IMG/VR virus record: IMGVR_UViG_3300037882_002341
Coordinates: 64,958 to 128,957 of that record
DNA length: 64,000 nt
From: a virus
Lineage: Duplodnaviria; Heunggongvirae; Uroviricota; Caudoviricetes
Reading direction: 5' to 3' (one strand)
Below, piece after piece: positions 1-18,836 of the stretch; the first letter of the stretch is position 1; each line of letters begins with the position of its first letter. Under the pieces are notes generated by a model, which did no database searches, was not told the origin of the DNA, and was given only the letters and a program-made list of their open reading frames with translations. Made by a program: the position numbers and the translations under genes.

Positions 1-1101
1 ACATCAATGCAAGATTTCCTACAAACAGAAGGAGAAGTTCGAAGCATTCTTGATGGACCAGAGTTTACACCCAGAAGATTCTCTGGGGTGCGCTCTGGTA
101 CACCAGAACAGCTAGCTGAAGTTAACAAGTTCAGCATACCAGAACAATATGTCGGAGCTGCCTGGGAACATCTTACACATGACATAGTGCCCAACATAGG
201 AAGAACAGTCCCTGTACTGGGTACTATATTTGATCGTAAGCTTATGGGCCAAAGATCTGCTTATGAAAGTTACCTTGAAGACCAGGTCTATGGTACAGAT
301 TTCCATGATTGGAGAAAGCCATATGAGAGTATGGTGGAACCTAGACTGCAGAATCTTGCTGCATCCAACCCCATCACCGCTACAGCCGGTGGTCTTGGGT
401 TAGGCTTGGCATTTGGTGCCACCCCACTGGGCGCCGCTGTTGGAGCAGTAGGAGGACTAACCCTTGGTATAAGCAGCACCGCTAGAATGATTAGCACTGG
501 TCAAGTAAGGGGTGGTTGGAAACCAGACTCTTTTGATCAGCAGAATGAACTTGAATCTTATTTTGATTCACTAGAATACAAAAGAGCAGAAATTAACATG
601 AGACGTTCTGAGGAAATAGGAAGGGAAGATCTTGCAAATAGATTCAAATTCCAGATGGGTAGAACAAGTGTTGGTACAAACTACCAGGCAGACGATATAG
701 CGTTTATGAATGCTGCTAAGTTTAGACTTGGTTCACCTATGAAGAAGTATGCTTGGCAGTTTCTTCAGGCTCCGGAAAGTAGCAGAGCAGCCTTGATGTC
801 GGTGTCTCCAGATATGGCGCAGCCATTACTAAGTAGTGCGTGGTCAAGACAGGGTGATAAAAGATTCCAAAGATACCCATCCAATAATGTCGAACAAAGA
901 TCAGCAGACATTATTGCCAATTACGGTATGCCGCCTTCCGATTGGGCAGGATGGAGTCCTGATATACCAATGAAGTCCATTAAAATAAAAACACTAGATA
1001 GTTATTTTAATGAGGCCTATGATATGCACCGCTACAATCTATGGGAAGCTGACCGTAGAACATTTGATAGGAATAGTCCAGGACTAGCAAGTGCATTCTA
1101 A
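1..1101 (+). CDS. C-terminal part of a tape-measure/ejection-like virion protein (5' truncated by window)
   Basis: Frame is open from base 1 (ACA TCA ATG). It has a Gly/Ala-rich hydrophobic stretch (TAGGLGLGLAFGATPLGAAVGAVGGLTLG) and lies upstream of the hub/baseplate genes. Confidence 0.5.
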   Translation, partial: TSMQDFLQTEGEVRSILDGPEFTPRRFSGVRSGTPEQLAEVNKFSIPEQYVGAAWEHLTHDIVPNIGRTVPVLGTIFDRKLMGQRSAYESYLEDQVYGTDFHDWRKPYESMVEPRLQNLAASNPITATAGGLGLGLAFGATPLGAAVGAVGGLTLGISSTARMISTGQVRGGWKPDSFDQQNELESYFDSLEYKRAEINMRRSEEIGREDLANRFKFQMGRTSVGTNYQADDIAFMNAAKFRLGSPMKKYAWQFLQAPESSRAALMSVSPDMAQPLLSSAWSRQGDKRFQRYPSNNVEQRSADIIANYGMPPSDWAGWSPDIPMKSIKIKTLDSYFNEAYDMHRYNLWEADRRTFDRNSPGLASAF

Positions 1102-4100
1102 TGATACATAGCGCACAAGAATACCTAAGACAGTTCCAGGCAGGCAACGTCCCCAGGGCAATGTCTGGCTTAGCTAGTTCGTTGGTATCAATGCACATGG
1201 GAGAAATCCAGCTAAGAACCGGTTCATCCTTTGGGATAGGTTTTGGCAGAGGCAATCCCTGGGCAGATCTTCCCACCCCCATGGCTGGGAGAATGGTCAG
1301 ATTTGGTACTCAGCCACAAGTCTTTATGGGTGGCCTTGTCAATCTTGCGACAAAGCCAGAAGAGAATCTTAGGTTCTCACCTATGGATCCCTGGGGTAAT
1401 CTCCAGGATATAGTTACCTCAACTCTCGGTAAAGGAGTTGACTCTAGTAGAGTTGGACTTAGTCTTCGTCCTCAGCTTGGGCTCTGGGCAGCTCGTCACC
1501 TGCAGGATCTTAATGCCTCTGGAGGAGGCATTAATATAGGAATGGTGCCTACGGCATCAAGACGTAGAAAACTCTTCTTCAATGATAGTGGATTCAGAGC
1601 AAGAGCCCTAGCGGACGCCAGTAGGAATTTCATGAATGCCGTTCTTGGCAATCATGAGAATACACACAGAAACTATTTAACAGACTCGCTTAATACATAC
1701 AGAAGATTCTACCTGGATGAGGTCTCTAAAGTACTACGTCAGGTATCTCCCGATTCGGGTGCTCATCTTAATATCCATGGTATTAAGGATGCCTCGTTCC
1801 AGCTCATAAGAAGATTCCAGGGTGGTAACTGGATTCAAGATACTGAGATGTTGGTTAACACGGGTAGCCCACATCAATATCGTCCCTTTGGCAATATAAG
1901 TGATCAGGTATCCGGTGACCAGCATATAAATCAATTTATAGCCATCTCATCTAATAAAGGCATTAAAGGCAGAAGACACTTCAGTGAGGGCAAATTCCAC
2001 CCACTTGTCACTGGCTCATCATATGGTGACGATCTTACCTTAATGGCCAAGGGTCTGGGCAAAAAGATGGGGACCTTTGGTACCCAGGTAAGCGCGGATG
2101 TCGGATATCTATATGGAGGAATGGCGGAACTATTCGCATCCAGAGCTTTCGGAGATTCAGGATCTCTTATAACAAGTACCAGGATGATGCATGCCTCTGG
2201 CTTATCCAGTCTTGATTACAAACTAAAGGTCTCTGGTCCCGTGGGTATGTTTGGTCTACCCTCACCAACTACCACTCTTGATCCTACTGTTATGTCGCTA
2301 CCTGGGGTAAGTGACTTCCTTGCTTCTAATGAGCAAAGGTATCTACAGTTTGATAATCCAATGGATATCAACAGAAGGATATTGGCCACATACAAGAGTG
2401 GTAAAAAGATAACGGCTATCAATAAGGCAGACAAGATCCTTGGTATTCAAAAGACAGCCGAGGGCATTAGACTTCTAATGCAAAGAGATAGGCCTGTTCA
2501 TAAGACTGGAAGACCAGTATTAATAGGGGGTGTTAGAGCGACTCTTGGTGTTGGCCCAGGAATGGGTATTGATATTCTTACGCAAGGAATGAAGTCATCC
2601 GACCCCGCAGTTGTCCGTGAACGATGGGCTGCCCATTACGCATCAAAGGTATTCGGGCTACGTGGGTTGAGTAGAAACCAGAGATCACAGGCTCTCCTGG
2701 AATTTGGTTCCTTCTCCGGTCTTGGTTCTGGAACCTACGGTAAAGGCAGAATATATCTCCATACAAATTCAAATTGGATGCAGGGAAGCTTTGCAAATCC
2801 AACTGAGTTTATGTCCCATGGCTTTAGAGAAAAGCTAGCTACCCATCTAAACACTAAACTTGGTCTAACTGGAGGTACTAGTTTTACAGCAGATCTTCTT
2901 TCACCTGTCAGCAGAAAACTAGGTAGAAGAAAGCTCATTAACATTCTCATGCATGGCGGCAGAATGAGTGAGGCCTCAGCCTCATCCGCTTATTCTTCTA
3001 TCAGAACCCAGGCTAGAAAGAGAGCAATTAAGGAAGCCACTTCACAAGGTCTAACGGGGAAGGATCTGAGGGACTATGTCAATAACTCTGTTTCACTCTC
3101 TTACCAGATCATGGAAGGACAAGGAGTTAAGTTCCGTGCAACCAACGTTGATGCCGAGAAGTTCCGTGTCAGAGTACTCGAGGCCAAGACCCTAAGATCT
3201 AAGCTTATTGATTACTCTGGAGCAGGAGATGACTTTGCCAAGAAAGCTGCCGGCATCATAGGTGGCAACATAGAAGATATACAGAGATACGTTAAGTTCG
3301 CACAGGGGGCCCAGGTTGCTCCTCTTATGGGAACTGAGGCCGTAGAACTTATTGCAAGAGAATCAAAGGGCAAGATCAATATCCTTAAGCTATCTGATAT
3401 AGCTAACCAAGGTTTATTCGATGAGATAAATACCAGTCTGCAGAACACAGGGAGTATGTCTCCAGAACTAGCAGACAGGCTATACAAAAACTTCGGCATG
3501 GAGAAAGGAACCTTCGGATCCTTTATTGATCTCAGGGGTAGTCATCTCCAGGGTATGGAAATATTCTCTGGCGCCAGGGATCTTTCTTCTAAGGATGCTG
3601 CCACAGCTGCCTCAGACTTCCTATTCTTACACAACATAAGGAGAGTCGCACCCGGTATAGATAAGAGCTCAACCACCGGCAACATTGCCGACATGTCAAT
3701 CATACCAAGAAGACCTGTCGTAGCAGGACTGGATCCACACAAGAATAAAGCTCTGGGTTCCATAGCCAATACATTCAATGTTTACTTTGATCTCTTAAAT
3801 CCATACGCCGGTAGAGGCGCCATGGAAGAGCGCATGTGGCTTATGAATGCTTCTGTCAGAGAGATGATGACAGGAAGCAAAGGATTAATATCACACAAGG
3901 CAATGACAGGATTCGTTGGAGGTCGCTATACAGCACAGGCACTTGGAACAGTAACAGATGACCTTGCCGTTGGCCTAACCGAGAAGGGTATTAAGAGAGC
4001 ATTCGGTAGAAAACAAGGCAGCCTTGGTCAACAAATGATTGATCAATTGAGGACCGGTAAGGATGTATTTGCTTTCTACAAGAGAGATCCTGTTCAATCT

Positions 4101-5765
4101 GCGCAGCAGATTGTGCCCGTTCGTCTACATCTTATTGAGAAACAAAAGATGGAAGCAGAAACCATGTGGGTTTCTAGACTCCTAGCTGGTGTTTCCCAGG
4201 CAGACTTTGACTCTGACAAGATGAACCTCTTCCTAATGTCACAGGGGAAGAATGCCGCTGGCCAACACACTATGCCATTCCTAGAGCAACAGACACTTGT
4301 CCGTGGCATGTATGAACAAACTCTGGAACAAGCCAAGCCATTTGCAAGCATGCTTGATCAGCAAATGTTAGCCGGAGATGAGACCGCCCGAAGACTAATG
4401 AGGCTTGCCGGTGGCTCACCTTTAACCGCAATAGGGATAGCTCAAAGCATGGCTGGTGGCAGTGAACCAGGTTCTAAGTGGGATGATGTTGTAAGACCAC
4501 TTGAGGCTACAAGGAAGACTTTGTTGAGTATAGGATATAAAGAGAGTGAAATAGACACTGCTCTAATGTCAGCCTACGGAGGATTCCAGCGCCGGATCCA
4601 AGGAGGGGGCGGGGTAGGTACAATGCACTCCTTTGCGACCAGGCAACAGGCTGTCCTAAATGCGCTAACCGATGACTCCACAAACCCCTTCTCTATGCCA
4701 AGAGACAAGATATTATCCAAAGCAAGGGAACTTGGTATTGATAATTTAACAGCATCCAAGAACGCAGACTATATTCGTTTCATCTATGGGTTCCTAAAGA
4801 AGGGAACCAAAGCCACAGAAGCTACTCTCAGAAGCATCTCTGCTCTTAGCATAGCCCCTCAACTATCTCCGGATAGCCAGGCGTACAGGTTATTAACAAC
4901 AGAACTGGCCAGCAATATTAAAGAGATGAGCTCTGGTGTGTCTGGTTCTAAGCGTGCTTTCTATACATTCGCTGAACAGGGTGCTCTTCAAGCAGCCAAG
5001 AATGCGGCTGGCCTTGGCCTAAGTGAAATTGAGGACGATCGTTTCTACCAGGACATGGCTCATAAGCTTATGAACGTGTCCAGACTAGAGCGCTATGCAA
5101 GTAAGCACGGATTGAATGCGGCCTCCAGGATGGGCACAACAAGAAATCCAAAGGACTTCTTGCATCAACTATTCTCTGAGTTCATGGGTAACGCGGGTGA
5201 GTCTGTGTTGCCAGGTACATCTAGTGCCGGTTCTGTCCTTAATGCTTCTATGATGGAGAAGGGCTACGTTGCTGGTTCTATAAACCCCGGCAATATCAAC
5301 CAAACCATAGCAGATGCCGCACATGGAGTAGGTCAATCAATAGATAAAGCAACGGACCTTGCCGGGGACTTTGGTAAGACCAAGGCGTGGGGCGCGATGA
5401 AGTTGGCTGGTCTAACCATAGGAGCTTTTGCTCTTATTGATGCCATTACATCAAAGAATAAAGCTACACCACCCGCTCCATATATTGAATCAGGAAGCTC
5501 TCAGTCCCCTATGCCACCCTCGCCACAAGTGGCATTTCCTAGTGATGGAGCAAGACCAAGCGCTCTTGCGCCAAGAGTTAATACGGCTAGAATAAATAGA
5601 GTACAGGGTCAGCGTCGTCATTTTGGCGGCGAGGATCAGGTATTTATGCCAGCCCCATATGATGTAATGGATGGATTTAGGAGTCAATCTCTTGGTGGAT
5701 CCAGACTAGGAGACCTCCCTAATCTTATGCCAACACTTGGATCAGCAGAAGACAGTGAGTTTTAA
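1101..5765 (+). CDS. Putative single-subunit two-barrel (DPBB) RNA polymerase, probably virion-associated
   Basis: beta'-like barrel: GGRYTAQ...GLTEKGIKRAF, FYKRDP (R995), MWVSRLLAGVSQADFDSDKMNLFL (D1035/D1037/D1039, nt 4203-4217). beta-like barrel: AFGDSGSLITSTR (D352) and IRLLMQRDRPVHKTGRPVLIGGVRATL...IDIL. Confidence 0.8.
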   Translation: MIHSAQEYLRQFQAGNVPRAMSGLASSLVSMHMGEIQLRTGSSFGIGFGRGNPWADLPTPMAGRMVRFGTQPQVFMGGLVNLATKPEENLRFSPMDPWGNLQDIVTSTLGKGVDSSRVGLSLRPQLGLWAARHLQDLNASGGGINIGMVPTASRRRKLFFNDSGFRARALADASRNFMNAVLGNHENTHRNYLTDSLNTYRRFYLDEVSKVLRQVSPDSGAHLNIHGIKDASFQLIRRFQGGNWIQDTEMLVNTGSPHQYRPFGNISDQVSGDQHINQFIAISSNKGIKGRRHFSEGKFHPLVTGSSYGDDLTLMAKGLGKKMGTFGTQVSADVGYLYGGMAELFASRAFGDSGSLITSTRMMHASGLSSLDYKLKVSGPVGMFGLPSPTTTLDPTVMSLPGVSDFLASNEQRYLQFDNPMDINRRILATYKSGKKITAINKADKILGIQKTAEGIRLLMQRDRPVHKTGRPVLIGGVRATLGVGPGMGIDILTQGMKSSDPAVVRERWAAHYASKVFGLRGLSRNQRSQALLEFGSFSGLGSGTYGKGRIYLHTNSNWMQGSFANPTEFMSHGFREKLATHLNTKLGLTGGTSFTADLLSPVSRKLGRRKLINILMHGGRMSEASASSAYSSIRTQARKRAIKEATSQGLTGKDLRDYVNNSVSLSYQIMEGQGVKFRATNVDAEKFRVRVLEAKTLRSKLIDYSGAGDDFAKKAAGIIGGNIEDIQRYVKFAQGAQVAPLMGTEAVELIARESKGKINILKLSDIANQGLFDEINTSLQNTGSMSPELADRLYKNFGMEKGTFGSFIDLRGSHLQGMEIFSGARDLSSKDAATAASDFLFLHNIRRVAPGIDKSSTTGNIADMSIIPRRPVVAGLDPHKNKALGSIANTFNVYFDLLNPYAGRGAMEERMWLMNASVREMMTGSKGLISHKAMTGFVGGRYTAQALGTVTDDLAVGLTEKGIKRAFGRKQGSLGQQMIDQLRTGKDVFAFYKRDPVQSAQQIVPVRLHLIEKQKMEAETMWVSRLLAGVSQADFDSDKMNLFLMSQGKNAAGQHTMPFLEQQTLVRGMYEQTLEQAKPFASMLDQQMLAGDETARRLMRLAGGSPLTAIGIAQSMAGGSEPGSKWDDVVRPLEATRKTLLSIGYKESEIDTALMSAYGGFQRRIQGGGGVGTMHSFATRQQAVLNALTDDSTNPFSMPRDKILSKARELGIDNLTASKNADYIRFIYGFLKKGTKATEATLRSISALSIAPQLSPDSQAYRLLTTELASNIKEMSSGVSGSKRAFYTFAEQGALQAAKNAAGLGLSEIEDDRFYQDMAHKLMNVSRLERYASKHGLNAASRMGTTRNPKDFLHQLFSEFMGNAGESVLPGTSSAGSVLNASMMEKGYVAGSINPGNINQTIADAAHGVGQSIDKATDLAGDFGKTKAWGAMKLAGLTIGAFALIDAITSKNKATPPAPYIESGSSQSPMPPSPQVAFPSDGARPSALAPRVNTARINRVQGQRRHFGGEDQVFMPAPYDVMDGFRSQSLGGSRLGDLPNLMPTLGSAEDSEF

Positions 5766-8700
5766 TGCCACAAAAAGACGCTCTAACATTACTCAAGAAA
5801 CTTAAGGTACCTACTTTTCTTGATCCTCCCGCTTCTCCAACGAAGTTTGTAGATAGCTTTGCAGACTTCTTTGTGTCTATTGAATATACTGATAGTGAGT
5901 ATTCTTCTTTTGTTACTACTCTTCTGCAATCGGTGAATGATGCAGACGTTTCGGAATACCCGACAGATGAGGAAAAGGAAGACGCCTTAGAGGGGATAAG
6001 CGACTCTCTACACGACATGTTGATCACTCTACAAGAGAAGAGAAGCAGAAAGAATCGCTTCTTCAATCTCCCATCTCGTAGAGATATCATAAAAGAAGCC
6101 AGTGTTAGTCAAAGGTCAACAGACATAGCTGTGGACGAATCGTTAGAGAGACGATTCAAAGATGCCCACACTATGATAGGCCCAATAGCTCTTGACCCAG
6201 AGATACCTGTTGTTGAGGTTGAGATAACAGAAAACTACTCAGCACAGACAACGCGTACTCTGAGAAGTAATACCGATCCGGTATTCAAATCTCACAAGAG
6301 CGATATCATGATGGCTATCACTATTGAGGTGCCATCTAATAGAATTAACGACAGAGGACCTGGCAAACCAGGTTTGTTGACCCTACTCGCCACACTCAAG
6401 GCCTTCCCTGTGTGTGAGATTGTTAGCTCTGCTATTACTCCTGTCTTCCTTAATTCTATTCTTGCGCCAGAACTATTCGAGAATCTACGTCAACAAGTTG
6501 CAGAAGAGATAAAGCTCAAGACAGGAGCAAGTCAGAAAAGACAATCTGAGCAGATCCAAACACTAAAGAGCGATAGCTTCGGAACCAACCTAGATAACTT
6601 TAAAAAGTTTATAGGCAATCTAAATCCCGTTATTGATTACATGATCCGAGACGAGGAAAACTCTAAAGAGAACCTGGAGAAACAGGACCCGGTATTTTCT
6701 TCTGTATCAAAACTTAGGAATGTAAAAGGATCGCTAACCGTACCCTGCGCCTACACAGGATGTATAGTCAAGACATCTCCCGGTAAGACAAACCAGCTTT
6801 CTGTAAAACTATTCTTTAGAAGATTTAACGATAAGATCTGGAACCCCTACGGCAAGATTATCTATCGAGATGTCAATGGTAAACCAACACCCAACGTAAC
6901 AGAGTGTCCGTGGATTGAGCGCATAGCGCTCATGATGTTTACCAATAACGTAGATAATCCAACCAACTTCATGGAGCCATATAGACACAGACTATCGGAA
7001 GAAGAGTCTGGAATGACTTTCGAGTGGGTGCAACCCACACAAGAAAGCAACTCCAAGTTTACCCCGCATGGTAAAGACTGGGTTATACAAGATATAGAAG
7101 CCCGCTCTTTCATGAAGACAGCACAGCTTCCTCTCCTTGGTTCACCTTATCCCACTGTTCAATACATGGGTATTGACAATGTGCACGCTAGAGTTTCTGT
7201 TGTTGTTAAGAGTGGTGTTGAGCTTGCACGCTTTCATGAAATGAAAGCGTCTCTCGATAGACTGAACTATGAAGCAGGACCCAATTCATTAAGACATCAC
7301 TACGTTAGAATAAAAAACAATCTCTTAAACTTCCTGGGCGCCAGAGACTTCGTCATCACCGGTATCACAACACATAGACAATCAGAAGAAGAAGTCTGGA
7401 ACGTTGAGTTTGAATTACTGGAGTCAAGTGTTTCGGCCAATGAGGCGGAAGCTATTGTTATTAAGGATAATGCATTTAAAGAAAAGGCAGATATCAAAAA
7501 GATTTGGGACCATATCTTTAACCTTCTTTCCGAACAGACTACATTCCCATGGGAAGCTGTGTCTAACCAGGAGAAAGAAGATCTCACCTCTCCCACCTCA
7601 GCCTTTGTGTCAAGATTCTTTACAGGTTATAAGGACTTCCCCAAAGACGCCAACAACATCAAGCCATATGAACTAGACTCAGAAGCTCAGATGGCATGGA
7701 GACTTGTATTTGAGAGAGCGGGAGACAGAGGATCAGGATCTATCCTGCAGCCCAATATCATGGCTGCCGCTTGGTATTCGTTGGCAATGAAGTCCAGAGC
7801 AAAGGAAGATAGTAAGAGTGGATTCTTCCCGTGGAACACGGGGTTCAGAAATGAACCTCGCATAGCGGCTGTGATGGAAGGTAGACAGTTCGAGCAATCA
7901 ACCTCAGATAATCTATTGTCTTTATTCAGCTCTGGTAGACAGACAGACATTAATAGAGGCGACAAGGGTTTCTTTACCAGCTGGGCCATGGTTGCCAATG
8001 CTGGTATGGGTCATAGAACCGAACACTTCTTTATCACCGGTAAGTATAATCCCGCAAGTATCTTTGAATTCTCTCCACTTTCAGGAGCTCCAGGAAACAG
8101 GATAAGAGAAACATCAGAAGATCAGATATATGAAACCTGGCCCAATCTTACTAACGCAGAGCGCAGAGCGCAGAAACAGGCTGCTGACTGGTTAAGTAAA
8201 GGTCAATATGACTCAGACTCAGATACCTTTGCAGAAACTCTGGATTGGTTTGGAAACGAATCCCAGTTCAACATATTTGAGCAAGGTAAAGAACTTCTCG
8301 AGTGGATGGCCATGGGAGAAGGAAGACACACAGTATTCTTCAGCAAAGAATTCTGGGACGAATACTTTAATATACTCTTCGAACAAAAAGTAAGACCTGA
8401 CGCAGACCAGAACCCAGCGTGGAATAACACCGACATTGTTGACGCAAGATGGAAGTTAACCTCACTTCTAAGAGAAGGAGGCTATTTAGATTTCCCAAGC
8501 CTTACCAGAACACAGAAATTAGATACACTTCAGGAAGAATCAAGATTCGTAAGAACCAACCTAGACGACAGCGATATAGACAAGAGGGAACAGACTAGGG
8601 GTAAATACGAAGCGTATAGATCTAATTACGCAGACATGAGATTGCCATCCTATGGCAAGGTCTTCAGAAATGACAAGACCAATGAACTTCTTACCAATAG

Positions 8701-11700
8701 TGATGGTAAGTTAACATGGAGAGAGTTTGCCCCAACCTTCTCGGATCTTGGTATCAAGCCCGCTTATCATAGACAGGTAGTCTTTGAAAGCACAGAGCAG
8801 GCTATTAATAAAATTGCGCGCAAAGAGAATGATCCAATTGAGCCTGACGCAGTGTATTTCCACTTTAGGCTTAAGGGTCAGTCACTGGCCAAACACTTGG
8901 CAAGTGAAGAGAATATCAACAATCACCTAACTGAAATCAATAAGCCAAGAAAAATTGTTGTGCCCAATAAAACAGCCAGGGGTGGTTCATTTACTGTTGA
9001 TCAGTATCTAAAGGAGGTGTGGAAGGTCCCCAATGAAAGATACCTGATGGAGGCCTTTGATAAACAAACGGATCATGATTCTCTTAGAGCACTGCAGTCT
9101 GATGGTAAGATTAAATCTATAGTTGTCATTGACGAAGAGGGTAATCCCCTGGGAAATGTTCTGGCAGACTCTCAGTCAAAATCTGGCATTAGATTTAATC
9201 CCATGAAAGGTATTAAGTTCCAGGTCTTCTCTGGAGACGCTTCTACCCCTGTAGACCCATACTCTTCTGAGCAGATAACAGCAGCAGCAAAAGATATCAT
9301 TATCAGATCAGAAGACAGGACCGGGAGTATGTCTAGAATATTCCCGGCGTATAGGCTTTACTTTATTGAGCAAGATCGTGGTTACAGATTCCTTGCCGAT
9401 GATCTATATGGTGTGAACTGTCTCATAAGCGTTTCAATCCGTAAGGATAAGAATGATGCCGATGTGATGGTCGCAACACTCTCAAACACAACAGACAACC
9501 TTTCCAATGAGCTAGTGCTATCTTCACAACAAGCAGACTCTCTTGGCCTAAGTGCAGATGATCAGGGAGAACCATACTTCTCATCTCTTAAGCTTCAGTC
9601 TGGTATTAATGTGCAGCTTAGACTTGGATATGGATCTAATCCAGATGAGTTACCCATTGTCTTCACTGGTATGATTACTGAAATTGAACCCGGTAAGATA
9701 GTCGAGATAACAGCACAAGGACACAAGAGAGAGTTGTTAAACGAAGTTCAATTCGACATGGAGTCTATTAATCACTTTGACATTATAAGGAAGATACTCG
9801 AGAAGACAGAACACCCCAATCTCGGGGAAGCAATGACAGCCAGTCGCTACTCAAGCGGTGCTCTTGCTACAAGATTCGCGGAGGGTCAGAATCCAAATGA
9901 CTTTATTGGCCTAACCGATACATGGTACAACAAGAAGGTTGTTGACATGTCAAACATATATCTAGTTTCCAATGCCCCATTGGAAACTAGCAGGAAGGTA
10001 TATTTCGACAAAGATAAGCCGATAGTGTCTACTGATCCACGCGTTAACTTTAATTCCGTAGGTGTGGTAGCTGAGAGGATTTATGACTTCTTTGATCCCG
10101 CAAGAAAAGCCATCTCAGAGATACGACCAGATCACTACTGGATAGAGACAGCGTATAGCAATGGTAAGTGGGCTAAGTGGGTTATACCTCCTCAGAGCGC
10201 GTGGGATGCTATTCAGGAGATCACGAGACATAGGCCCGGCACAATAGCCCAAGTCGTGCCATACGACTCGAGAGGTACTTTGTTCGTGGGCCAGCCAGAA
10301 CAGGCCTATCAGGCAACAGATCCTAACCACGCAGAGCTTCTAACATACTCTATGTTGCAGGGGTCTATAGGTAAAAAGATAAATATAGATTTTGGTAATG
10401 ATGTCATTAGGCCCTTTATGGACAGTATATGGGGCAAGATGTATCTTACCCACTACAAGGGTAATAGTTTAAACTTTACCGGCCTTGCCCCTCGTATAGG
10501 CACCACGGCACTGGCTCAGCCAATAGACCCCAGGTCTTTGCTTAGACCTTTGAGTGAGCTGTATACAGACAGCACTATTTTCATTAGACCAACAGACATT
10601 ATGGAGTTGGACGAGCTCCCAGATTCAGACGACAAGAGCAGGATAAACGAATATCTATATTCAAATAGCTCACTTCAACTTCATGACAAAGATGATTTTA
10701 CTAAAGAAGCAGAAGAGGCAATTCGTAAAGCCCTTGGAGAAGAACTACCTCCGGGTTTCAACATCCCTGGAATGTGGTGGATATACGCCGACGATCTCAC
10801 CACACAAGTAAGAGAGCTGAACCGCATAGAACCTAGACTGGTCGAATCCCTGTTTATGTGGTATTACGATCTCGACCCCTCTGCTACCGCACTACAGATA
10901 CCAAACATAAATAACTCCATTAAACCATTATTCTTCTCTTCAGATAGTATGGGTAATTTTATAGAAGAGCTCTTAAAGAACACAGGTACGGAACTTTCCG
11001 CTAACTATAAGAGATTAAAGAATGGGTCTGCTTCTCTTAATGCTGTTCAGTTAAGGACAGGGGGAGAGGAAGATCAAATCAACTTCCTTATAACACAAAG
11101 TCTTATCACCGAAGAAGAGGCAAACGCATTAAGGAAAAGACTATTCTCTGGCCAGAATAACCCCATGACCAGACAACAGCTTCACGACCCTGTTCTTGAT
11201 ATCATAGATAGTGCCGATGACGATCTTACACTAGCTCATCTGCTTGCAAAGACAGGTGGTGGATTCAGGCTATTCATTTTCAATGTGTATAGGTTTATGG
11301 TTCAGTCGGCTTTCTCTGGCTCTAACCTTAAGATCAACGAGGCTATAGTAAGAAACTCTGCATCCAAAGTACACTCCGTTGATCTACCACCGGGCAAGAA
11401 AATCTTCCGTGGCTATCACTACATAGGGATGGCAGATATTATTGAGAACAACATAGAAGCATCCATGGAAGAAATGTCGAACTGTTGCCTGGTTCGTGCG
11501 CCAGCCTCAGAGGTTGCCTACGAGGTAATTGAATCTGACGTAGAAGATGACAATGGAGATAACGAAAAGGATATCGTTGTTGAATTCGAAGAGACAGACT
11601 GGAGATCCTACCCAACAACAGACGGTGCTCCCTATACATGGAAGATAGGAAAAGAGAATCGTAAGCTAGGTGTTGTCTATGAGTTAAACGCCATCCACCC

Positions 11701-12634
11701 AAACCAAAAGGCCAAAACACTAATGTCCAACATGGGCCTTATGATTTCCCCCATGTATAGAGGCAGCCTCTTGGTTGTCGGAAGAGATATCAAGCCTCAT
11801 GATGTTGTTTATATCTGTGACACAGAAAACGATCTGAGAGGTCACTTCGAAGTTGAATCTTGCACCCACCACTTTAGTGTTGGTACCGGTTGGATCACAG
11901 ACATCAAGCCATGCGCCCTAGTTCGTGTTAATAACCCGACAGCAGAGATCCAGCTGGCCAGTACCCAGTCGTTCCTAAGTGACACTCAGATACTATTGGA
12001 TGTGTTGGACGTAGGCCTAACCGCCTTTACTATAGCAGGATTCTTTATGACCAGTGGCGCCTCCGGTGTGGTTGCCACATCCATAAGATCTGGAGTTAAG
12101 ATAGGGGCCAGGGTAGGACAAGAAGCTCTTAAGAAGAATATGATAACAAGAGCTCTCAAGTCTTCTATCACTGGGTTTACTAAGCGAGCCTTCTCTGACA
12201 GCGTAGCGGGTATCTCGAGTGGAGTTAAGGCAACTCTTTCCACAGCCAAGCTACAAGGGAATAACAGAGCCCTAGCTTTCGCAAGTTACTTTGGTGGCAT
12301 CCTTGTCCCAACCAGGGGACTTTTAACGCTGGGGGCCCTCCAGATAGGCCTAGGGGCATCAGACGCTGCCACCTCCCTGTATGTTAAACATCTACTATCT
12401 TCCACCGAGCTACCCATTGATGTACATTATCTATTGTATAGAGGACAGGTACTCCAGGCTGGGCTAGAGATAGATGATAGAGATATATATAGTCTCTACG
12501 ATAAAATTACAGCTGTTACAAAAGAAATGAAGAGAGATGTTGGTGAATTCTTTACTGGTCTCGCCGATGACTTTAGTGGGGTTCAAAAGAATACCAGTGT
12601 TCTAGAAAGAGCAAGACAGTCGAGGGATAGATAA
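5765..12634 (+). CDS. Giant baseplate hub / tail-tube-initiator fusion protein (2289 aa)
   Basis: Hub-like segment LYFIE...QLRLGYGSNPDELPIVFTGMITEIEPGKIVEITAQG (about 9350-9740), then YRGSLLVVGRDIKPHDVVYICD...FEVESCTHHFSVGTGWITDIKP (about 11756-11910). Tube-initiator-like N-terminal segments. Lies upstream of the gp25/J genes. Confidence 0.65.
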   Translation: MPQKDALTLLKKLKVPTFLDPPASPTKFVDSFADFFVSIEYTDSEYSSFVTTLLQSVNDADVSEYPTDEEKEDALEGISDSLHDMLITLQEKRSRKNRFFNLPSRRDIIKEASVSQRSTDIAVDESLERRFKDAHTMIGPIALDPEIPVVEVEITENYSAQTTRTLRSNTDPVFKSHKSDIMMAITIEVPSNRINDRGPGKPGLLTLLATLKAFPVCEIVSSAITPVFLNSILAPELFENLRQQVAEEIKLKTGASQKRQSEQIQTLKSDSFGTNLDNFKKFIGNLNPVIDYMIRDEENSKENLEKQDPVFSSVSKLRNVKGSLTVPCAYTGCIVKTSPGKTNQLSVKLFFRRFNDKIWNPYGKIIYRDVNGKPTPNVTECPWIERIALMMFTNNVDNPTNFMEPYRHRLSEEESGMTFEWVQPTQESNSKFTPHGKDWVIQDIEARSFMKTAQLPLLGSPYPTVQYMGIDNVHARVSVVVKSGVELARFHEMKASLDRLNYEAGPNSLRHHYVRIKNNLLNFLGARDFVITGITTHRQSEEEVWNVEFELLESSVSANEAEAIVIKDNAFKEKADIKKIWDHIFNLLSEQTTFPWEAVSNQEKEDLTSPTSAFVSRFFTGYKDFPKDANNIKPYELDSEAQMAWRLVFERAGDRGSGSILQPNIMAAAWYSLAMKSRAKEDSKSGFFPWNTGFRNEPRIAAVMEGRQFEQSTSDNLLSLFSSGRQTDINRGDKGFFTSWAMVANAGMGHRTEHFFITGKYNPASIFEFSPLSGAPGNRIRETSEDQIYETWPNLTNAERRAQKQAADWLSKGQYDSDSDTFAETLDWFGNESQFNIFEQGKELLEWMAMGEGRHTVFFSKEFWDEYFNILFEQKVRPDADQNPAWNNTDIVDARWKLTSLLREGGYLDFPSLTRTQKLDTLQEESRFVRTNLDDSDIDKREQTRGKYEAYRSNYADMRLPSYGKVFRNDKTNELLTNSDGKLTWREFAPTFSDLGIKPAYHRQVVFESTEQAINKIARKENDPIEPDAVYFHFRLKGQSLAKHLASEENINNHLTEINKPRKIVVPNKTARGGSFTVDQYLKEVWKVPNERYLMEAFDKQTDHDSLRALQSDGKIKSIVVIDEEGNPLGNVLADSQSKSGIRFNPMKGIKFQVFSGDASTPVDPYSSEQITAAAKDIIIRSEDRTGSMSRIFPAYRLYFIEQDRGYRFLADDLYGVNCLISVSIRKDKNDADVMVATLSNTTDNLSNELVLSSQQADSLGLSADDQGEPYFSSLKLQSGINVQLRLGYGSNPDELPIVFTGMITEIEPGKIVEITAQGHKRELLNEVQFDMESINHFDIIRKILEKTEHPNLGEAMTASRYSSGALATRFAEGQNPNDFIGLTDTWYNKKVVDMSNIYLVSNAPLETSRKVYFDKDKPIVSTDPRVNFNSVGVVAERIYDFFDPARKAISEIRPDHYWIETAYSNGKWAKWVIPPQSAWDAIQEITRHRPGTIAQVVPYDSRGTLFVGQPEQAYQATDPNHAELLTYSMLQGSIGKKINIDFGNDVIRPFMDSIWGKMYLTHYKGNSLNFTGLAPRIGTTALAQPIDPRSLLRPLSELYTDSTIFIRPTDIMELDELPDSDDKSRINEYLYSNSSLQLHDKDDFTKEAEEAIRKALGEELPPGFNIPGMWWIYADDLTTQVRELNRIEPRLVESLFMWYYDLDPSATALQIPNINNSIKPLFFSSDSMGNFIEELLKNTGTELSANYKRLKNGSASLNAVQLRTGGEEDQINFLITQSLITEEEANALRKRLFSGQNNPMTRQQLHDPVLDIIDSADDDLTLAHLLAKTGGGFRLFIFNVYRFMVQSAFSGSNLKINEAIVRNSASKVHSVDLPPGKKIFRGYHYIGMADIIENNIEASMEEMSNCCLVRAPASEVAYEVIESDVEDDNGDNEKDIVVEFEETDWRSYPTTDGAPYTWKIGKENRKLGVVYELNAIHPNQKAKTLMSNMGLMISPMYRGSLLVVGRDIKPHDVVYICDTENDLRGHFEVESCTHHFSVGTGWITDIKPCALVRVNNPTAEIQLASTQSFLSDTQILLDVLDVGLTAFTIAGFFMTSGASGVVATSIRSGVKIGARVGQEALKKNMITRALKSSITGFTKRAFSDSVAGISSGVKATLSTAKLQGNNRALAFASYFGGILVPTRGLLTLGALQIGLGASDAATSLYVKHLLSSTELPIDVHYLLYRGQVLQAGLEIDDRDIYSLYDKITAVTKEMKRDVGEFFTGLADDFSGVQKNTSVLERARQSRDR

Positions 12635-13245
12635 TGAGAGGCAATAGAAACAATACACAAGCTGAACACAGAGAGCAAAACCAGAACGAAAGACATGGCA
12701 AGTTCATAATGTGTGCCTTTTATGATGACCTCTTGCCAACAGGTGTCAAAAGTCCAGGGTATATTGAGACCATAAGTAAAGACAGGCGGCCCGCCGCCTA
12801 CGTTGTACCGCTCTCGAGTCTTGAAGAACGAAATATCCAAAGGACAGTTGACCCCTTAGAACCCTCTATCTCTGAGGACTTTAAAGTAAAATGGGCAAGA
12901 GAACATGTACGTCTCATAAAGCTTATGAGTAATCTTGGTCTGTCCTCAAAAGAAATTATGGATGATTATCTTGTTAGAGTGCCATACCCAATGTCTTCGG
13001 CTTCAACAGGAGAGCTCATAAGAAAACCAGGTAGAGCAGTCTCCCAGGCATCTGTCCCAGATGGGATAACGGGAGATGATATAGAAACAAATAAGATGCT
13101 TGATAGAAGTGTTAATATATCCGAAAAAAGAAAGATAGCCAAAGCTCGCTATGGCTCTTCCGGAGATAGAACAATAGGAGTGCCATTCGTGGGCACACAA
13201 GAACAGTTCCCCAACACTGGGGACATCTGGTTAGGAAGTGGGTAA
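12634..13245 (+). CDS. Hypothetical protein in baseplate module
   Basis: 203-aa ORF with TAATG overlaps at both ends; no recognised motif. Confidence 0.7.
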   Translation: MRGNRNNTQAEHREQNQNERHGKFIMCAFYDDLLPTGVKSPGYIETISKDRRPAAYVVPLSSLEERNIQRTVDPLEPSISEDFKVKWAREHVRLIKLMSNLGLSSKEIMDDYLVRVPYPMSSASTGELIRKPGRAVSQASVPDGITGDDIETNKMLDRSVNISEKRKIAKARYGSSGDRTIGVPFVGTQEQFPNTGDIWLGSG

Positions 13246-13655
13246 TGGGTCAATTCCAAGTCAAGGTATCTGGTAAAGATGTATCTCTTTTTGACAGACA
13301 GGGTCGAGTCAGAGCCAGCTTTGCTGATACACATACCAAATTTAACTCCTCATCAATAGATCTTGGAGTAACAGATCCTGCTAGAATAACAGCCACAAAC
13401 GAACAAATGAATCCAATGGGGAGACATATAGCCTCAACTATAGTGTCTCCGCAACCCACATGGACACCCGTTATACCAGCTGTCAACATTGCAATGACAA
13501 TGATTCTTGCTATCGTAGCTATAGCAAATCAATTAGAAGATGAAACAAATAGTAAAGCAAGCCGCAACAGTTTGTTGGGTAAGCCAGTATACAGAGAGAA
13601 TTATCAGATAATAAACTTCGAGGACTTTCTCCCAGAGAGTGTGACAAATGGGTAG
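13245..13655 (+). CDS. Hypothetical baseplate protein (spike position)
   Basis: 136-aa ORF with a beta-rich N-terminus, between the hub and gp25-like genes. Confidence 0.6.
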   Translation: MGQFQVKVSGKDVSLFDRQGRVRASFADTHTKFNSSSIDLGVTDPARITATNEQMNPMGRHIASTIVSPQPTWTPVIPAVNIAMTMILAIVAIANQLEDETNSKASRNSLLGKPVYRENYQIINFEDFLPESVTNG

Positions 13656-14085
13656 TTATTTTCAACAGGACATCAAAACATTTGATGATGGAGAGATAGA
13701 TATAAGCAGTGGCGATATACCCGTCGCGACCGTCCAACAGTCTCAAAGACAGTTACTTATAAATATCTTAAACACCACCAGAGGTGGATTTAGATTTAAT
13801 GACTTTATTGGTTGGGGTGCTGAAAGATATATGGGTAAAAAGAATGTGCCCATAGTCCACGAGATCATGAAGGAAGACCTCCGCACAGGCCTTCAGGCGG
13901 CAGACGATCTAATACTAGAAGATATAGACTACACCGTCTCTTTTCTTAGTGAAGAGGTTGCTGCGATAATCGTACGCCATAGTGGTTTATTCTACGAAGA
14001 AGATGGAACACTAAACAATACCCCACTTGTTCTTGGCTGGAGATTAAGCTTTCTAACAGGACAGATTGAGCCGGAGACCGAATAA
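13648..14085 (+). CDS. Baseplate wedge protein, gp25/W-like
   Basis: DIKTFDDGEIDISSGDI...QLLINILNTTRGGFRFNDFIGWGAERYMGK pattern, size 145 aa, directly before baseplate J. Confidence 0.75.
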   Translation: MGSYFQQDIKTFDDGEIDISSGDIPVATVQQSQRQLLINILNTTRGGFRFNDFIGWGAERYMGKKNVPIVHEIMKEDLRTGLQAADDLILEDIDYTVSFLSEEVAAIIVRHSGLFYEEDGTLNNTPLVLGWRLSFLTGQIEPETE

Positions 14086-15224
14086 TGATACGCAAGAAAA
14101 GCAAAGAAGAGCTCCTCAACCAAGTTCTAAAGGGCATTGTCCAAGAGACAAGTATCACTATGGTGGGAACAGGCTCTGTAACCAGGGGTCTAGCATCAGT
14201 CTTCTCGTCAACCATAGAGGAAACTTATCAAATTCTTGATGATGCTGTAACAAATAGTTTTCTTCCAACAGCCAGTGGATTCTATCTAGATCTATTCGGC
14301 GAGACCTTTGGCCTAGCCAGGAAGCCACCAACACAGGCAAGACTGTCTGCCTCGGATAGAACTATTAAATTCTATGTTAATAGTGGTACCTTGGCCACAA
14401 GGCTTCCTCATCCTTCGGACTTAAACAAGGGTAGAGTTCCTGTGGGAACAGAGATCACAACAGATTCTGGCATAGCATTTAGCGTTGATGCCAACTACGA
14501 TTTTCCTGCTGCCTCTAAAGAAGTATTCGTAGGGGCAATCTCTTCGGAATCCGGAACGACACAGAACGTTCCCGCAAGCTCACTAACAAATACCAACCTG
14601 AGCAATGGCGTTTTGGTAACCAACGTTGCGCAGGTTACCACGGGAAGAGATCTGGAATCAGACGAAGAGTATAGATTTAGGATATCCAAGTGGGTAAGGA
14701 CCTCTGCGGGTCGAAATGAGATTGCTGTAAGACTAGCCGTCCTCTCTGCGCCAAATGTGGCAGACATGATAAAGGAGCCATACTTTGCTGGCGCAGGATC
14801 GTTTAGGATCATCGTTATCCCTTCGGGGAACAGGATCTCGTCCGATAGCATTAGAGCGATCAATGTTAACCTATCCTCAATAGTCTCAGATGGTACATTC
14901 TTTATTGTAGAGGGACCAAGATATGTACCGGTTAGTATCTCGATAAGACTGGTTCCCGCTGAGAACAAGTCGATATCAGAGACCGACAGGTCTCTGGTAA
15001 AAGAATCGGTTCTTAAATATCTTGGTGATATTAGACCTGGAGAAAGTTTAATAGTAAATCGACTAAGAGCAAACGCTCTCAATGCATCAAGAAACGTAAG
15101 AGATATTGCTATCCAAGGAATCGCTATTAACAAGAGACCCCAAGCTTTGGTAAACTTCACACTTGAAAAGGACGAACTGTTCGTCCCAGACACAGATATC
15201 GATAACCCTATATTGGTGGCCTAA
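14085..15224 (+). CDS. Baseplate J-like wedge protein
   Basis: ASGFYLDLFGETFGLARKPPTQA, RVPVGTEITT, GRDLESDEEYRFRI, FAGAGSFRIIVIP are typical Baseplate_J motifs. Confidence 0.9.
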   Translation: MIRKKSKEELLNQVLKGIVQETSITMVGTGSVTRGLASVFSSTIEETYQILDDAVTNSFLPTASGFYLDLFGETFGLARKPPTQARLSASDRTIKFYVNSGTLATRLPHPSDLNKGRVPVGTEITTDSGIAFSVDANYDFPAASKEVFVGAISSESGTTQNVPASSLTNTNLSNGVLVTNVAQVTTGRDLESDEEYRFRISKWVRTSAGRNEIAVRLAVLSAPNVADMIKEPYFAGAGSFRIIVIPSGNRISSDSIRAINVNLSSIVSDGTFFIVEGPRYVPVSISIRLVPAENKSISETDRSLVKESVLKYLGDIRPGESLIVNRLRANALNASRNVRDIAIQGIAINKRPQALVNFTLEKDELFVPDTDIDNPILVA

Positions 15225-15724
15225 TGGGACTCAACGTAAAGTTTTATAATCCCGCAAATATCCTTACAGGAGGTGCGAAGGGTGCCTTGATGGGCAGCAT
15301 CTTGGCCACCAGTGATCAGACTGTTTCCGCGGCAAACTTTTTCTCTGCCACAAGTGAGCAGGAACCAGGCACAACAAACTATTATTTTAGGAAGATCTTC
15401 CTTAATAATGCCGAGGCAGTCAGTATCCTGGACCCAGAGATCTACTTTGACGATCTCGAATACCCAAGCAATGTAACATTTGCTCGCGGCAAATCTGCCT
15501 CTGACACTACAGTCCAGCCCTATGCCATGCCAACAGGCTACGAAACATCTGACTTCTTCACTGCAGTGGCAGTGGAAGACAGGATACCTCTCTTTGTAGA
15601 CTCTAGTGATCTTGCGGCGGCAGCGGACGCAGCTATCTGGATGAGAACTAAAGTAACACCTGGACAGCTTGCAGACTCAAACGCTGTTGGAAGATTAAGG
15701 CTTCGTGGTCGTAGAAGTCCATAA
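15224..15724 (+). CDS. Hypothetical virion structural protein
   Basis: 166-aa ORF, TAATG-coupled within the baseplate operon. Confidence 0.7.
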   Translation: MGLNVKFYNPANILTGGAKGALMGSILATSDQTVSAANFFSATSEQEPGTTNYYFRKIFLNNAEAVSILDPEIYFDDLEYPSNVTFARGKSASDTTVQPYAMPTGYETSDFFTAVAVEDRIPLFVDSSDLAAAADAAIWMRTKVTPGQLADSNAVGRLRLRGRRSP

Positions 15725-17412
15725 TGCCAGATCTTCTCCCCTGTGTACCAGACAATGAGGCCGTACTATCTTTTGGCTATATCATTGTTGGCGACGAGAG
15801 CTCAACTCTCAGCTTCGGCTATGAAATAGTAGAAAGCACAGAGGAGTACTCTACCCTATCCTTTGGTTACGAAATAACCATTGCTGGTCTAACCTCTTGG
15901 GAACCAACCTTTACTCCAGTTGGGTACATGACTCAGTACATGGGGAACTTCTATCCTTATTGGCATGCTGCTAATGTCAAGAATGGTGGCAGAACTCAAA
16001 GAGTAATGAACAGTCTAGCTGGCTTTCAGATTACACAATTGTTAACAAAGATAAGAAGACTTAGAGCAAACCTTTTCCTTTCAACCACAGACTTGTCGGA
16101 ACCACATAAGGTGTGGGTTGCTCCCAGGCCTGTGGCCAGTATTGAACAAGATAAGACCATTAATCTTTTAAGTAACCCATCTCTTAGCAGAGTTCAACCA
16201 CAGAGACTTGGTCCATGGTCATGGAGCTCTGGGTTTGTAGGCTCAACAGGAGACTGGGAACTCAAAAGAGGACTTGGCCTATACGGATATCATGCCGTGC
16301 GTCTCACCGCACAAAATGGAGAGTCAATCTCTCTTAAACAATCCAATGATCTTATATTTAGAGAGGGTAATATATACACCGCCACAGTCTGGTACGCTGG
16401 AATGAGACCAGAGCGCGGGACACCAATCTCAAGTAGATCTTCTGGACCGCAGCTTCAGATTAATACTCAATACAGCGATGGATCAACAGAGATTGATTCT
16501 GTCTTTTTAGAAGATGACACCAACGGTGCATGGAAACGAGCCTCGTTAAGTTTCAGCCCAAGTAAAGACACCCACAACATCGAGGTATCTATAGTTGTTA
16601 AGGATTACGAAGGAGAGACTGTTGTCCTGGAAGTCGGGGCTGTCCAACTAGAGGCAGGCAGAGACTCTTCTGTTTTCACAGATAACGTTTTTAGTTCCAA
16701 TACTCTCTACGCTATTTACCCAAGAGAAACAATATCAGAAGATACAGGATGGGGTACCTTTAGCTACGAAAGACAAAAGAGAATACGTATAGACGATTTC
16801 CTTTCATACGAGAACCTGCTAGAACAACTACCAGATAGATGTACTGTCACAACGGCTACCAGTGAGGTTGCTGTTTCCAATAATGTTCTTGATGCCATTA
16901 TCGAATCAACAGGACAACAATTTTCCATTGGCTGGAGGATAGCAAACAACCTAATAGAAAGATACAACGTAGATATTAGGCAAAATGAGATATGGGGTTA
17001 CTACAAGATTGCCGATCTCTATGGGAATGGAGACACTGATCTTCTATTCTTTAGGCCTGCAGATCTTGGTGTGACTTCAACATACGAAGCATTAACCGTA
17101 GCTGGGGAATGGCTCTATGTAATGGTAAAGGAAACTTATCTTGGCAAGACCACAAGAGTCCTTAAGATTTGTAGTCCATACATAAGATGGGATGACACAA
17201 ATCATCTCGAGAGTTTTGCCGATATCTACGTTGACGATGGAACAGGTACCTGCACTTTCCTTGGTGTAATAAACGGCAGATCGGATCAGCTTCTTATGAC
17301 GGTTAGTTCTGTGGACAAGGTTATAGATCTAATCTGGGACTCTGCTGCCAGAAATACCGATGGTACCTTAATATTTAGAAGTGATCTTGGAGAGGCTACG
17401 GTGGTGGGATAA
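15724..17412 (+). CDS. Structural protein with carbohydrate-binding-module-like (CBM4/9-like) domain
   Basis: NLLSNPSL...W...AVRLTAQNGESISLKQ...GNIYTATVWYAG...AWKRASLSF...VQLEAG resembles a CBM beta-sandwich. Confidence 0.55.
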   Translation: MPDLLPCVPDNEAVLSFGYIIVGDESSTLSFGYEIVESTEEYSTLSFGYEITIAGLTSWEPTFTPVGYMTQYMGNFYPYWHAANVKNGGRTQRVMNSLAGFQITQLLTKIRRLRANLFLSTTDLSEPHKVWVAPRPVASIEQDKTINLLSNPSLSRVQPQRLGPWSWSSGFVGSTGDWELKRGLGLYGYHAVRLTAQNGESISLKQSNDLIFREGNIYTATVWYAGMRPERGTPISSRSSGPQLQINTQYSDGSTEIDSVFLEDDTNGAWKRASLSFSPSKDTHNIEVSIVVKDYEGETVVLEVGAVQLEAGRDSSVFTDNVFSSNTLYAIYPRETISEDTGWGTFSYERQKRIRIDDFLSYENLLEQLPDRCTVTTATSEVAVSNNVLDAIIESTGQQFSIGWRIANNLIERYNVDIRQNEIWGYYKIADLYGNGDTDLLFFRPADLGVTSTYEALTVAGEWLYVMVKETYLGKTTRVLKICSPYIRWDDTNHLESFADIYVDDGTGTCTFLGVINGRSDQLLMTVSSVDKVIDLIWDSAARNTDGTLIFRSDLGEATVVG

Positions 17413-18836
17413 TGGGATCGGGAACACACAGGATCAAGGGGCTACGCCCACTGGGTAGCACAATAGAGTTTGAGGAAGGTTTAGTTATTATAAACTACCC
17501 GTCTCCCACCACGTGGGAGGCGGATATTGTTATTGAGCCAGATGTTACGGAATATAACTACAGATTTATTTCCATATCAGATGTTCAGTCTCCTTGGATT
17601 ACCGTTACTGTTACGGTAAAGAGTTCTTCCCCACAGGAAACCCAGGCTTCTAATACGCTTGATTTCTGGGGCATGAGACTAGACACAGAAAGACTTTCGG
17701 GAGAAGGCAATGTTGCATACCGCAATCGTCTGTTGGATGTATTTGTCCACCGCGGTGGGCCGCATCATACAGGTCTTCTGAATGCTATTGGTCGTGATCT
17801 ATCCTTAAGCTACGAAGACCAAGCGCTTATCATTCAGGCCAAGACAAGCCCAATTAGCGGGTTAAGATTCAATAGGATTATTTTTGGTATATCAAGTCAG
17901 AAGATAAGGGTCTTCCATCCTGATCTTGTCATTCATGGCGAACTAGCACTCGTTGATCCTGTAACAAGAGAAGTCTCACCAACAAGGACCGTTGCCACTT
18001 TCTTAAATGTTAGTTTAGAAGACGGCACTGTTTTAGATTATGACTATGACGAAGAATTAAACAAAGTTTACATCCATGGGAATTACGCAAGCCAGGTAGT
18101 TAGACTTAGTTATGTTTACATGCATGTAGTGTCTAGACTTAACAAGACCTTAAGTCAACTATCTACCGAACTCGAGGCTTTGGTTACCCCGGCTGGTGAT
18201 CAAATCATCGACGTAACAGTTCACTCGGATTACGCAACAGCCACAGCGGAGAAACTGCAAAACCTCCCCGAGACCGTTATTGAAGAGTTCCACTTAGATG
18301 CAAGTGGTACAGAGGTGGAGGGTATACCCGTTAGATGGATTGATTGTAAATTAGAAGTTGTTTGGGATCCGGAACTTCAAAACAACCTGCGCGCATGGAC
18401 GGGAAGTCTTGTTAATACCAAAATAGATTCTGCATTTCAGGCACTTGTCGAGACAGCTAAGCAAACCTGGGGGACAGCGGTTGCCGATGACTCGGTCTGG
18501 GGCAGTACAAAATTCCCTCTGCACGGTGGCCAACACTTCGATAGTATCTTCGATGCACCACTTGGATACTGGGAGAATCCCATAACAGGAGAACGCTTTA
18601 ACAAGTGGCAGGCCGATATGGGAGTGGATCCCAAAACCCTCGATACTCTTACCTACAAAGGAATTCTACAGTCTGAATTCCAGTCTGGTGTTGGGGGAAA
18701 GAATGATCTAAGGGTTTCTCTTAAGAGACACAGTTTCCAAAGATCGGGAACTGAGGCTGAACACAACGTTACTGATGGATCAGAGGGTGAAATCCCAGAC
18801 GATGATCCGATGTTGGGCGTTGTGGATCTTGAGTAA
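17412..18836 (+). CDS. Baseplate wedge protein (gpI/gp7-like segment) with N-terminal Ig-like domain
   Basis: TLDFWGMRLDTERLSGEGNVAYRNRLLDVFVHRGGPHHTGLLNAIGRDL resembles wedge subunit motifs. Confidence 0.55.
   Translation: MGSGTHRIKGLRPLGSTIEFEEGLVIINYPSPTTWEADIVIEPDVTEYNYRFISISDVQSPWITVTVTVKSSSPQETQASNTLDFWGMRLDTERLSGEGNVAYRNRLLDVFVHRGGPHHTGLLNAIGRDLSLSYEDQALIIQAKTSPISGLRFNRIIFGISSQKIRVFHPDLVIHGELALVDPVTREVSPTRTVATFLNVSLEDGTVLDYDYDEELNKVYIHGNYASQVVRLSYVYMHVVSRLNKTLSQLSTELEALVTPAGDQIIDVTVHSDYATATAEKLQNLPETVIEEFHLDASGTEVEGIPVRWIDCKLEVVWDPELQNNLRAWTGSLVNTKIDSAFQALVETAKQTWGTAVADDSVWGSTKFPLHGGQHFDSIFDAPLGYWENPITGERFNKWQADMGVDPKTLDTLTYKGILQSEFQSGVGGKNDLRVSLKRHSFQRSGTEAEHNVTDGSEGEIPDDDPMLGVVDLE

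Follow-up and report, generated by a model that had tools for sequence, protein, structure and literature searches.

Does a giant open reading frame (ORF) in the tail module of an uncultured, contractile-tailed phage encode an RNA polymerase? We addressed this question for P0001, a gene in a window of 64,000 nucleotides (43% GC) that comprises positions 64958-128957 of the 192,957-bp IMG/VR record IMGVR_UViG_3300037882_002341. The record has direct terminal repeats and was judged to be a complete genome (~193 kb) with contractile-tail genes. A first-pass annotation, made from the letters of the window, had proposed that P0001 is a single-chain polymerase with a β-like and a β′-like barrel. All the P0001 strings that it quoted are indeed present at their assigned residues, and the ORF of 1554 residues (1101-5765, plus strand) was confirmed. 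As judged from the predicted fold and the sequence, we consider a β′-type barrel, complete with a DxDxD triad that the whole family conserves, very probably real. On balance, we favor the view that P0001, the tape-measure-slot protein of a 0305phi8-36-type phage, has at its center a catalytic core belonging to the superfamily of two-barrel RNA polymerases.

P0001 escaped routine annotation. Searches of Pfam, PHROG and PDB sequences returned nothing for the single protein or for the family profile, tblastn found no match among 50,697 phage records, nor did a feature search of the ESM Atlas return any. Performing an exhaustive phmmer search over 1.8 billion cluster representatives, we recovered four relatives; a word-indexed search of 5.8 billion proteins yielded a fifth, and a scan of metagenome contigs found no relatives beyond these five. 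They share 23-47% identity with P0001 across the core. With six sequences in the family, alignment depth is low and the models built from it are middling.

Nevertheless, the six sequences agree at the residues that would form a catalytic site. The β′-like strings lie at residues 940-946 (GGRYTAQ), 994-997 (KRDP) and 1033-1044 (QADFDSDKMNLF). The last holds the triad, which reads DFDSD, DLDSD, DHDFD, DYDGD, DHDGD and DFDGD across the family. Within the core (residues 270-1310), 4 of the 52 aspartates are invariant, and three of these are D1035, D1037 and D1039. The triad, R995 and P997 thus stay fixed at 23-47% identity, while the positions between the aspartates are free to change (F, L, H or Y in the first gap; S, F or G in the second), which is the pattern of selection on a catalytic site. 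Two glycines of the barrel lead-in, G925 and G940, are also invariant in the family alignment. A DFD[GS]D string is expected by chance 0.002 times in P0001 and 0.08 times in the 59,254 residues encoded by the genome.

Profile comparisons pointed to the same region. When PF00623 (RNA_pol_Rpb1_2) was run over this genome, it matched only P0001 (residues 1017-1048, E 0.0104, 13.1 bits) and the β′ homolog of a second, split polymerase that the phage encodes elsewhere (mini β and mini β′; Table 1). The P0001 score is under the curated cut-off of 25.3 bits, and standard hmmscan reports no match. A hidden Markov model (HMM) of the P0001 family, built from residues 915-1085, matched residues 450-472 of E. 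coli β′ with a score that none of 1000 shuffles reached. Aligning P0001 with mini β′ by hhalign, we find GxKG...GGR, RDP and DxDxD all in register (E 0.21); at the position matching R995-D-P997, mini β′ reads RDPV.

Structure prediction bore out one of the two proposed barrels. We modeled residues 270-1310 with AlphaFold from the six-sequence alignment and obtained a mean predicted local distance difference test (pLDDT) score of 56.5. In this model, residues 938-1046 fold into six strands and three helices, arranged along the chain as a double-psi barrel would have them. In the stretch after the barrel, where the polymerase superfamily has its bridge helix and trigger loop, the model shows a helix of 32 residues (1060-1091) in which E1062 and Q1064 are invariant; the remainder, including the YGFLKK string, has pLDDT <50. 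Searching the PDB with Foldseek, we find that the best 50 matches are all RNA polymerase β′ chains (E 5e-5 to 5e-4). A second search, independent of Foldseek, covered 48,161 chains; the largest subunits of RNA polymerases filled its top nine rows. Lower down came a designed double-psi barrel (root-mean-square deviation 1.9 Å over 85 residues), the AR9 and phiKZ phage polymerases, QDE-1, P74 gp62 and P23-45 gp96. Of the polymerases that the first-pass annotation had named for structural comparison, QDE-1 and β′ are in the fold lists; phi14:2 gp66 did not appear. In BFVD, an unnamed protein ranks first (E 2e-11), a 'minor tail protein' second (E 7.5e-6) and third the 802-residue second piece of an uncharacterized protein of Acinetobacter phage vB_AbaM_ME3 (E 6.7e-5). 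Polymerase subunits of giant viruses, poxviruses, African swine fever virus and baculovirus are among the further matches.

The best structural matches, E. coli RpoC and eukaryotic Rpb1, are, like mini β′, colinear with P0001 over GxKG...GGR, R-x-P, DxDxD and the E-x-Q helix. Unlike the multisubunit β′, P0001 is one chain with ~900 residues before the barrel, and no zinc-binding clamp motifs were seen in it; the protein has zero cysteines. We regard the predicted β′-type barrel and its catalytic loop as established as far as prediction permits.

Where in the phage would such a protein reside? The genes run in the order major head protein, sheath, tube, tube paralog, three small genes, the 1416-residue gene, P0001, the 2289-residue gene, three small genes and baseplate J. 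This arrangement recurs in four related contigs and, from sheath to baseplate J, in Bacillus phage 0305phi8-36. By tblastn, the 1416-residue protein matches 0305phi8-36 ORF145, gp096 of Bacillus phage vB_BceM_WH1 and ME3 gp035 (E 8e-15 to 2e-23), and the 2289-residue protein matches 0305phi8-36 ORF147 (a T4 gp27-like hub), WH1 gp094 and the 'endolysin' of Moorella phage MTATph1. ME3 gp037 is the same-slot gene to this hub, by its record note. In 0305phi8-36, ORF146 lies between ORF145 and ORF147, and its length and position led to its assignment as the tape measure (PMC2147016); according to the phage's record, mass spectrometry identified its product, gp146, in virions. Since the flanks of P0001 are homologous to the two genes that bracket ORF146, P0001, by sequence and gene order, occupies the tape-measure slot, which in 0305phi8-36-type phages follows the tail chaperonins and a gp145-type gene and precedes the gp27-like hub. 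The first-pass annotation had put P0001 between a tape-measure-like gene and the hub, a placement that synteny with 0305phi8-36, WH1 and ME3 overturns: the supposed tape measure upstream is the gp145-type gene.

The C-terminal part of P0001 fits this slot. In each of the six family members, hydrophobicity over 19-mers peaks in a helix 112-131 residues before the C-terminus. The corresponding distance is 128 residues in gp146, 122 in WH1 gp095 and 123 in ME3 gp036, where the helix is the second most hydrophobic segment. In the motif that follows, D1482, G1483, R1500, V1501, G1503, Q1504, R1505, H1507 and F1508 are invariant in the family. A family HMM of the C-terminal part (residue 1380 to the end) scored 10.7 bits on gp146 and 7.0 bits on WH1 gp095, and 0 of 1000 shuffles reached either value. 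By these profile scores, the C-terminal module of P0001 is homologous to that of gp146. Virion annotation exists for positional homologs of P0001 only, and we consider it likely from the sequence comparisons that P0001 itself is a tail or virion protein.

The same-slot proteins of two cultured phages carry a similar signature. WH1 gp095 (2515 residues; 10593-18140 of the WH1 stretch analyzed, minus strand) was deposited as a virion structural protein. At residue 1996, it carries an NRYPT...KADHDGD motif, with 38 residues between the two strings. This motif region is the sole PF00623 match in the WH1 genome (E 5.4e-4, 17.4 bits), and the P0001-family HMM aligned to it in register at the triad (9.6 bits; none of 500 shuffles scored as high). 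WH1 gp095 shares the slot and the helix position with P0001; however, the similarity is limited to ~130 residues, and the WH1 protein is ~960 residues longer. ME3 gp036, a hypothetical protein of 1603 residues in the same slot (9173-13984 of the ME3 stretch analyzed), has a REP...GDHDQD motif at 1217, with 44 residues between the two strings; its sequence similarity to P0001 is not significant. The 802-residue ME3 piece in BFVD most likely derives from gp036, because 1603 is about twice 802. By their motifs, both proteins look polymerase-like; in the literature that we searched, no paper describes either as a polymerase. As both phages are cultured and their same-slot proteins bear the same signature, they would offer tractable entry points if the polymerase reading is true. 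As a separate observation, a transposase insertion apparently divides the tape-measure-slot gene of MTATph1 (6513-13869 of the stretch analyzed) into CDS0027 (1309 residues) on one side and, after the transposase and CDS0029-30, CDS0031 (313 residues) on the other; CDS0031 has a hydrophobic helix 126 residues before its end.

Several results weigh against a polymerase, and most of them concern the second barrel. The first-pass annotation had seen a β-like barrel in GTQVSADVGY (from residue 327), FGDSGSLITSTR (350-361) and IRLLMQRDRPVHKTGRPVLIGGVRATL (456-482). Residues G351, D/E352, D444, G477, R/K479, K498, R506, H512 and Y513 are conserved within 327-520. However, in both models (270-1310 and 290-640) the candidate motifs (327-363 and 455-494) have pLDDT <50 and gave no fold match. 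Over the genome, PF00562 matches the mini-β gene only and not P0001. Aligning P0001 by hhalign with a profile of the ten-member mini-β family, we obtained E 0.45-0.5, and the P0001 HMM matched neither E. coli rpoB nor mini β. Thus, while the β′-like set of motifs stands above chance (PF00623, HMM and invariance), no test lifted the β-likeness of residues 327-363 and 455-494 above chance. Two lysines are universal in the β-type barrel, and this pair lacks clear counterparts in P0001. R/K479 and K498 come closest; these and R506 are candidate basic residues only. Outside the barrel question, gp146 has neither DxDxD nor a PF00623 match, so that the slot does not by itself imply a polymerase; gp146 is also the only same-slot protein with mass-spectrometry evidence for virion presence in its record. 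A k-mer search of 63 upstream regions found no repeated promoter-like motif, and the confidence of the P0001 model is middling.

We also considered another site for the β-type barrel. Residues 800-875 (GSFID ... FSGAR ... TGNIADMSIIPRR) are by eye colinear with FED ... SGxKG ... GxxVDIxxxPxSR of β. The hhalign placement of residues 859-871 onto mini-β residues 461-473 was not significant and the shuffle test was negative, so this site was set aside as a lead only. Known single-chain enzymes have no detectable sequence similarity outside the DxDxD region, β-type barrels included (PMC10770324). Presumably, the ~900 residues ahead of the P0001 barrel supply the second, β-like barrel.

The nearest precedent is a virion RNA polymerase fused to the tape measure, gp96 of Thermus phage P23-45 (PDB 8h2m and 8h2n; Chaban et al. 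2024, PMC10770324). In gp96 as in P0001, a two-barrel-type polymerase core is part of the protein of the tape measure or tail lumen, the C-terminal part includes a membrane segment, and DxDxD lies ~100 residues into the barrel; P23-45, too, has a second polymerase. The virion enzyme transcribes the gene of this second, non-virion enzyme, and transcription coupled to DNA entry was proposed (PMC10770324). We found neither sequence kinship nor close structural kinship between P0001 and P23-45 gp96 or gp64, and hhalign aligned the family to gp96 out of register (E 0.57). The single-chain polymerases phi14:2 gp66, QDE-1 and YonO showed no sequence similarity to P0001. Phages of the crAss-like group are short-tailed, unlike this contractile-tailed phage. 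With gp146, P0001 shares the slot, the homologous C-terminal module and the helix position; gp146 differs in its length of 2537 residues, and no similarity between the two was found outside the C-terminus. P0001 is best read as a new polymerase sequence family and a new form of the P23-45 principle.

What would such an enzyme do? From sequence and model, we think that P0001 is probably a tail-borne, active polymerase that is injected; packaging and injection are inferred from the gene position. P0001 would be synthesized late and incorporated in the tail lumen. At infection, it would be expelled before the DNA, and the C-terminal hydrophobic helix would anchor at a membrane channel. The polymerase core would then transcribe the first-entering genes, possibly including those of mini β and mini β′.

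The evidence can also be read in other ways. P0001 might be a structural protein of the tape measure or tail lumen whose barrel is no longer a polymerase but a DNA- or metal-binding module for tail assembly or DNA delivery. The slot, the C-terminal module in common with gp146, the missing DxDxD of gp146 and the failure to find a second barrel with its conserved lysine pair all suit this view. It does not readily account for the retention of the three aspartates, R995 and P997 in relatives of 23-47% identity while the residues in between vary, nor for the triad in the far more distant WH1 gp095, and we consider it unlikely. Chance resemblance in an ordinary hypothetical protein is scarcely credible. 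The expectation for a genome of this size is ~4.7 DhDxD strings (h = F, Y, H, L, W, I, V or M), against seven observed, so the string itself is cheap; however, the fold matches, Pfam, the invariance and the in-register alignments to β′ and WH1 gp095 converge on the same 150 residues.

P0001 could instead be only the β′-like half of an enzyme, with the second barrel provided in trans, for example by the 1416-residue gp145-like protein or by mini β. That no β-like barrel is detectable inside P0001, that the genome encodes a free-standing β homolog of 632 residues and that the three giant genes are translationally coupled would all be in keeping with such an arrangement. Mini β, however, adjoins its own mini β′, ~110 kb off and on the other strand; the upstream protein has no PF00562 match at E <= 10. 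Moreover, the ~900 conserved residues ahead of the P0001 barrel exceed the whole of mini β, and the β-type barrels of known single-chain enzymes are equally undetectable by sequence (PMC10770324). We therefore rate the half-enzyme as rather improbable and retain the single-chain, injected polymerase as the preferred reading.

To our knowledge, a polymerase carried by the tape measure has so far been proven only in one long-tailed Thermus phage, and we know of host-independent transcription start in large phages only for N4, phiKZ-like, crAss-like phages and P23-45. If P0001 is active, the tape-measure-plus-polymerase principle would reach contractile-tailed jumbo-type phages, and a polymerase family unseen by any profile library would be added. 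The question would then arise of how a polymerase of >1500 residues passes through a contractile tail tube. More tentatively, a tape-measure-borne RNA polymerase might be old and widespread in 0305phi8-36-like large contractile-tailed phages, including WH1 and ME3, and in the present phage hand over to mini β and mini β′. Two polymerases in one phage have parallels in P23-45 and the phiKZ-like phages. The mini-β family has nine metagenomic relatives, and no match to the mini polymerase was found in the record of one relative with a P0001 homolog, which is 29% complete.

Table 1. Features of P0001 and its surroundings. Positions refer to the window unless marked as genome positions; residue numbers are those of P0001.
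Feature	Position	Strand	Basis or remark
Upstream 1416-residue gene, last 366 codons	1..1101	+	gp145-type virion structural protein; TAATG overlap with P0001
P0001, 1554-residue ORF	1101..5765	+	Tape-measure slot; RNA polymerase-like core; ORF listing and translation
Candidate β-like barrel, residues 327-520	2079..2660	+	Motif likeness in the first-pass annotation; conserved residues
Barrel lead-in, residues 925-942, GSKGLISHKAMTGFVGGR	3873..3926	+	hhalign onto mini β′ 126-148, in register, E 0.21
β′-type double-psi β-barrel and following helix (predicted), residues 937-1082	3909..4346	+	Predicted fold; sub-threshold Pfam match; conservation
R995-D-P997 (cf. NRAP of β′)	4083..4091	+	R995 and P997 invariant
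D1035-F-D1037-S-D1039, putative metal-binding triad	4203..4217	+	Invariant in all six family sequences
YGFLKK, residues 1229-1234	4785..4802	+	Invariant columns of the family alignment; modeled at low confidence
Gly/Ala-rich hydrophobic helix, residues 1428-1452	5382..5456	+	~120 residues before the C-terminus
C-terminal motif DGARPSALAP...ARINRVxGQRRHF, residues 1482-1508	5544..5624	+	Conserved in the family
2289-residue baseplate hub and lysin-type giant protein	5765..12634	+	PHROG 20474, E 1e-27; TAATG overlap with P0001
Baseplate J-like wedge protein	14085..15224	+	Pfam PF04865, E 3.9e-24; PHROG 6
Mini β (632 residues) and mini β′ (569 residues, NADCDGD)	genome 179305-182912	-	PF00562, E 2.9e-10; PF00623, E 1.5e-6; PDB matches to β′

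The start and the end of P0001 each overlap the neighboring gene by one base within the string TAATG, and the next downstream junction does likewise. Because of these overlaps, the tail-operon genes around P0001 are probably translationally coupled. The three giant proteins (1416 residues, P0001 and 2289 residues) are not paralogs by BLAST. Each of them has a hydrophobic segment ~120-235 residues before its C-terminus, and the 1416-residue protein, like P0001, has no cysteine. DxDxD is absent from the 1416-residue protein. Further upstream, two adjacent genes (genome 57987-59678) match PHROG 9206, which is labeled 'major head protein'. This label looks wrong for them, as their 0305phi8-36 counterparts gp140 and gp141 are recorded as tail tube and tube paralog.

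The repeats that the promoter k-mer search did return belong to a family of small genes and not to a promoter motif. These small unannotated ORFs lie at ~3.3-10.8 kb, 139.6 kb and 168.1 kb of the genome, upstream of ORFs 6, 8, 14, 21, 153 and 195. Their products end in ...RLIEWIxxGKPxLLDG..., and their TGA stop lies within TGACCxATG, just before the next start.

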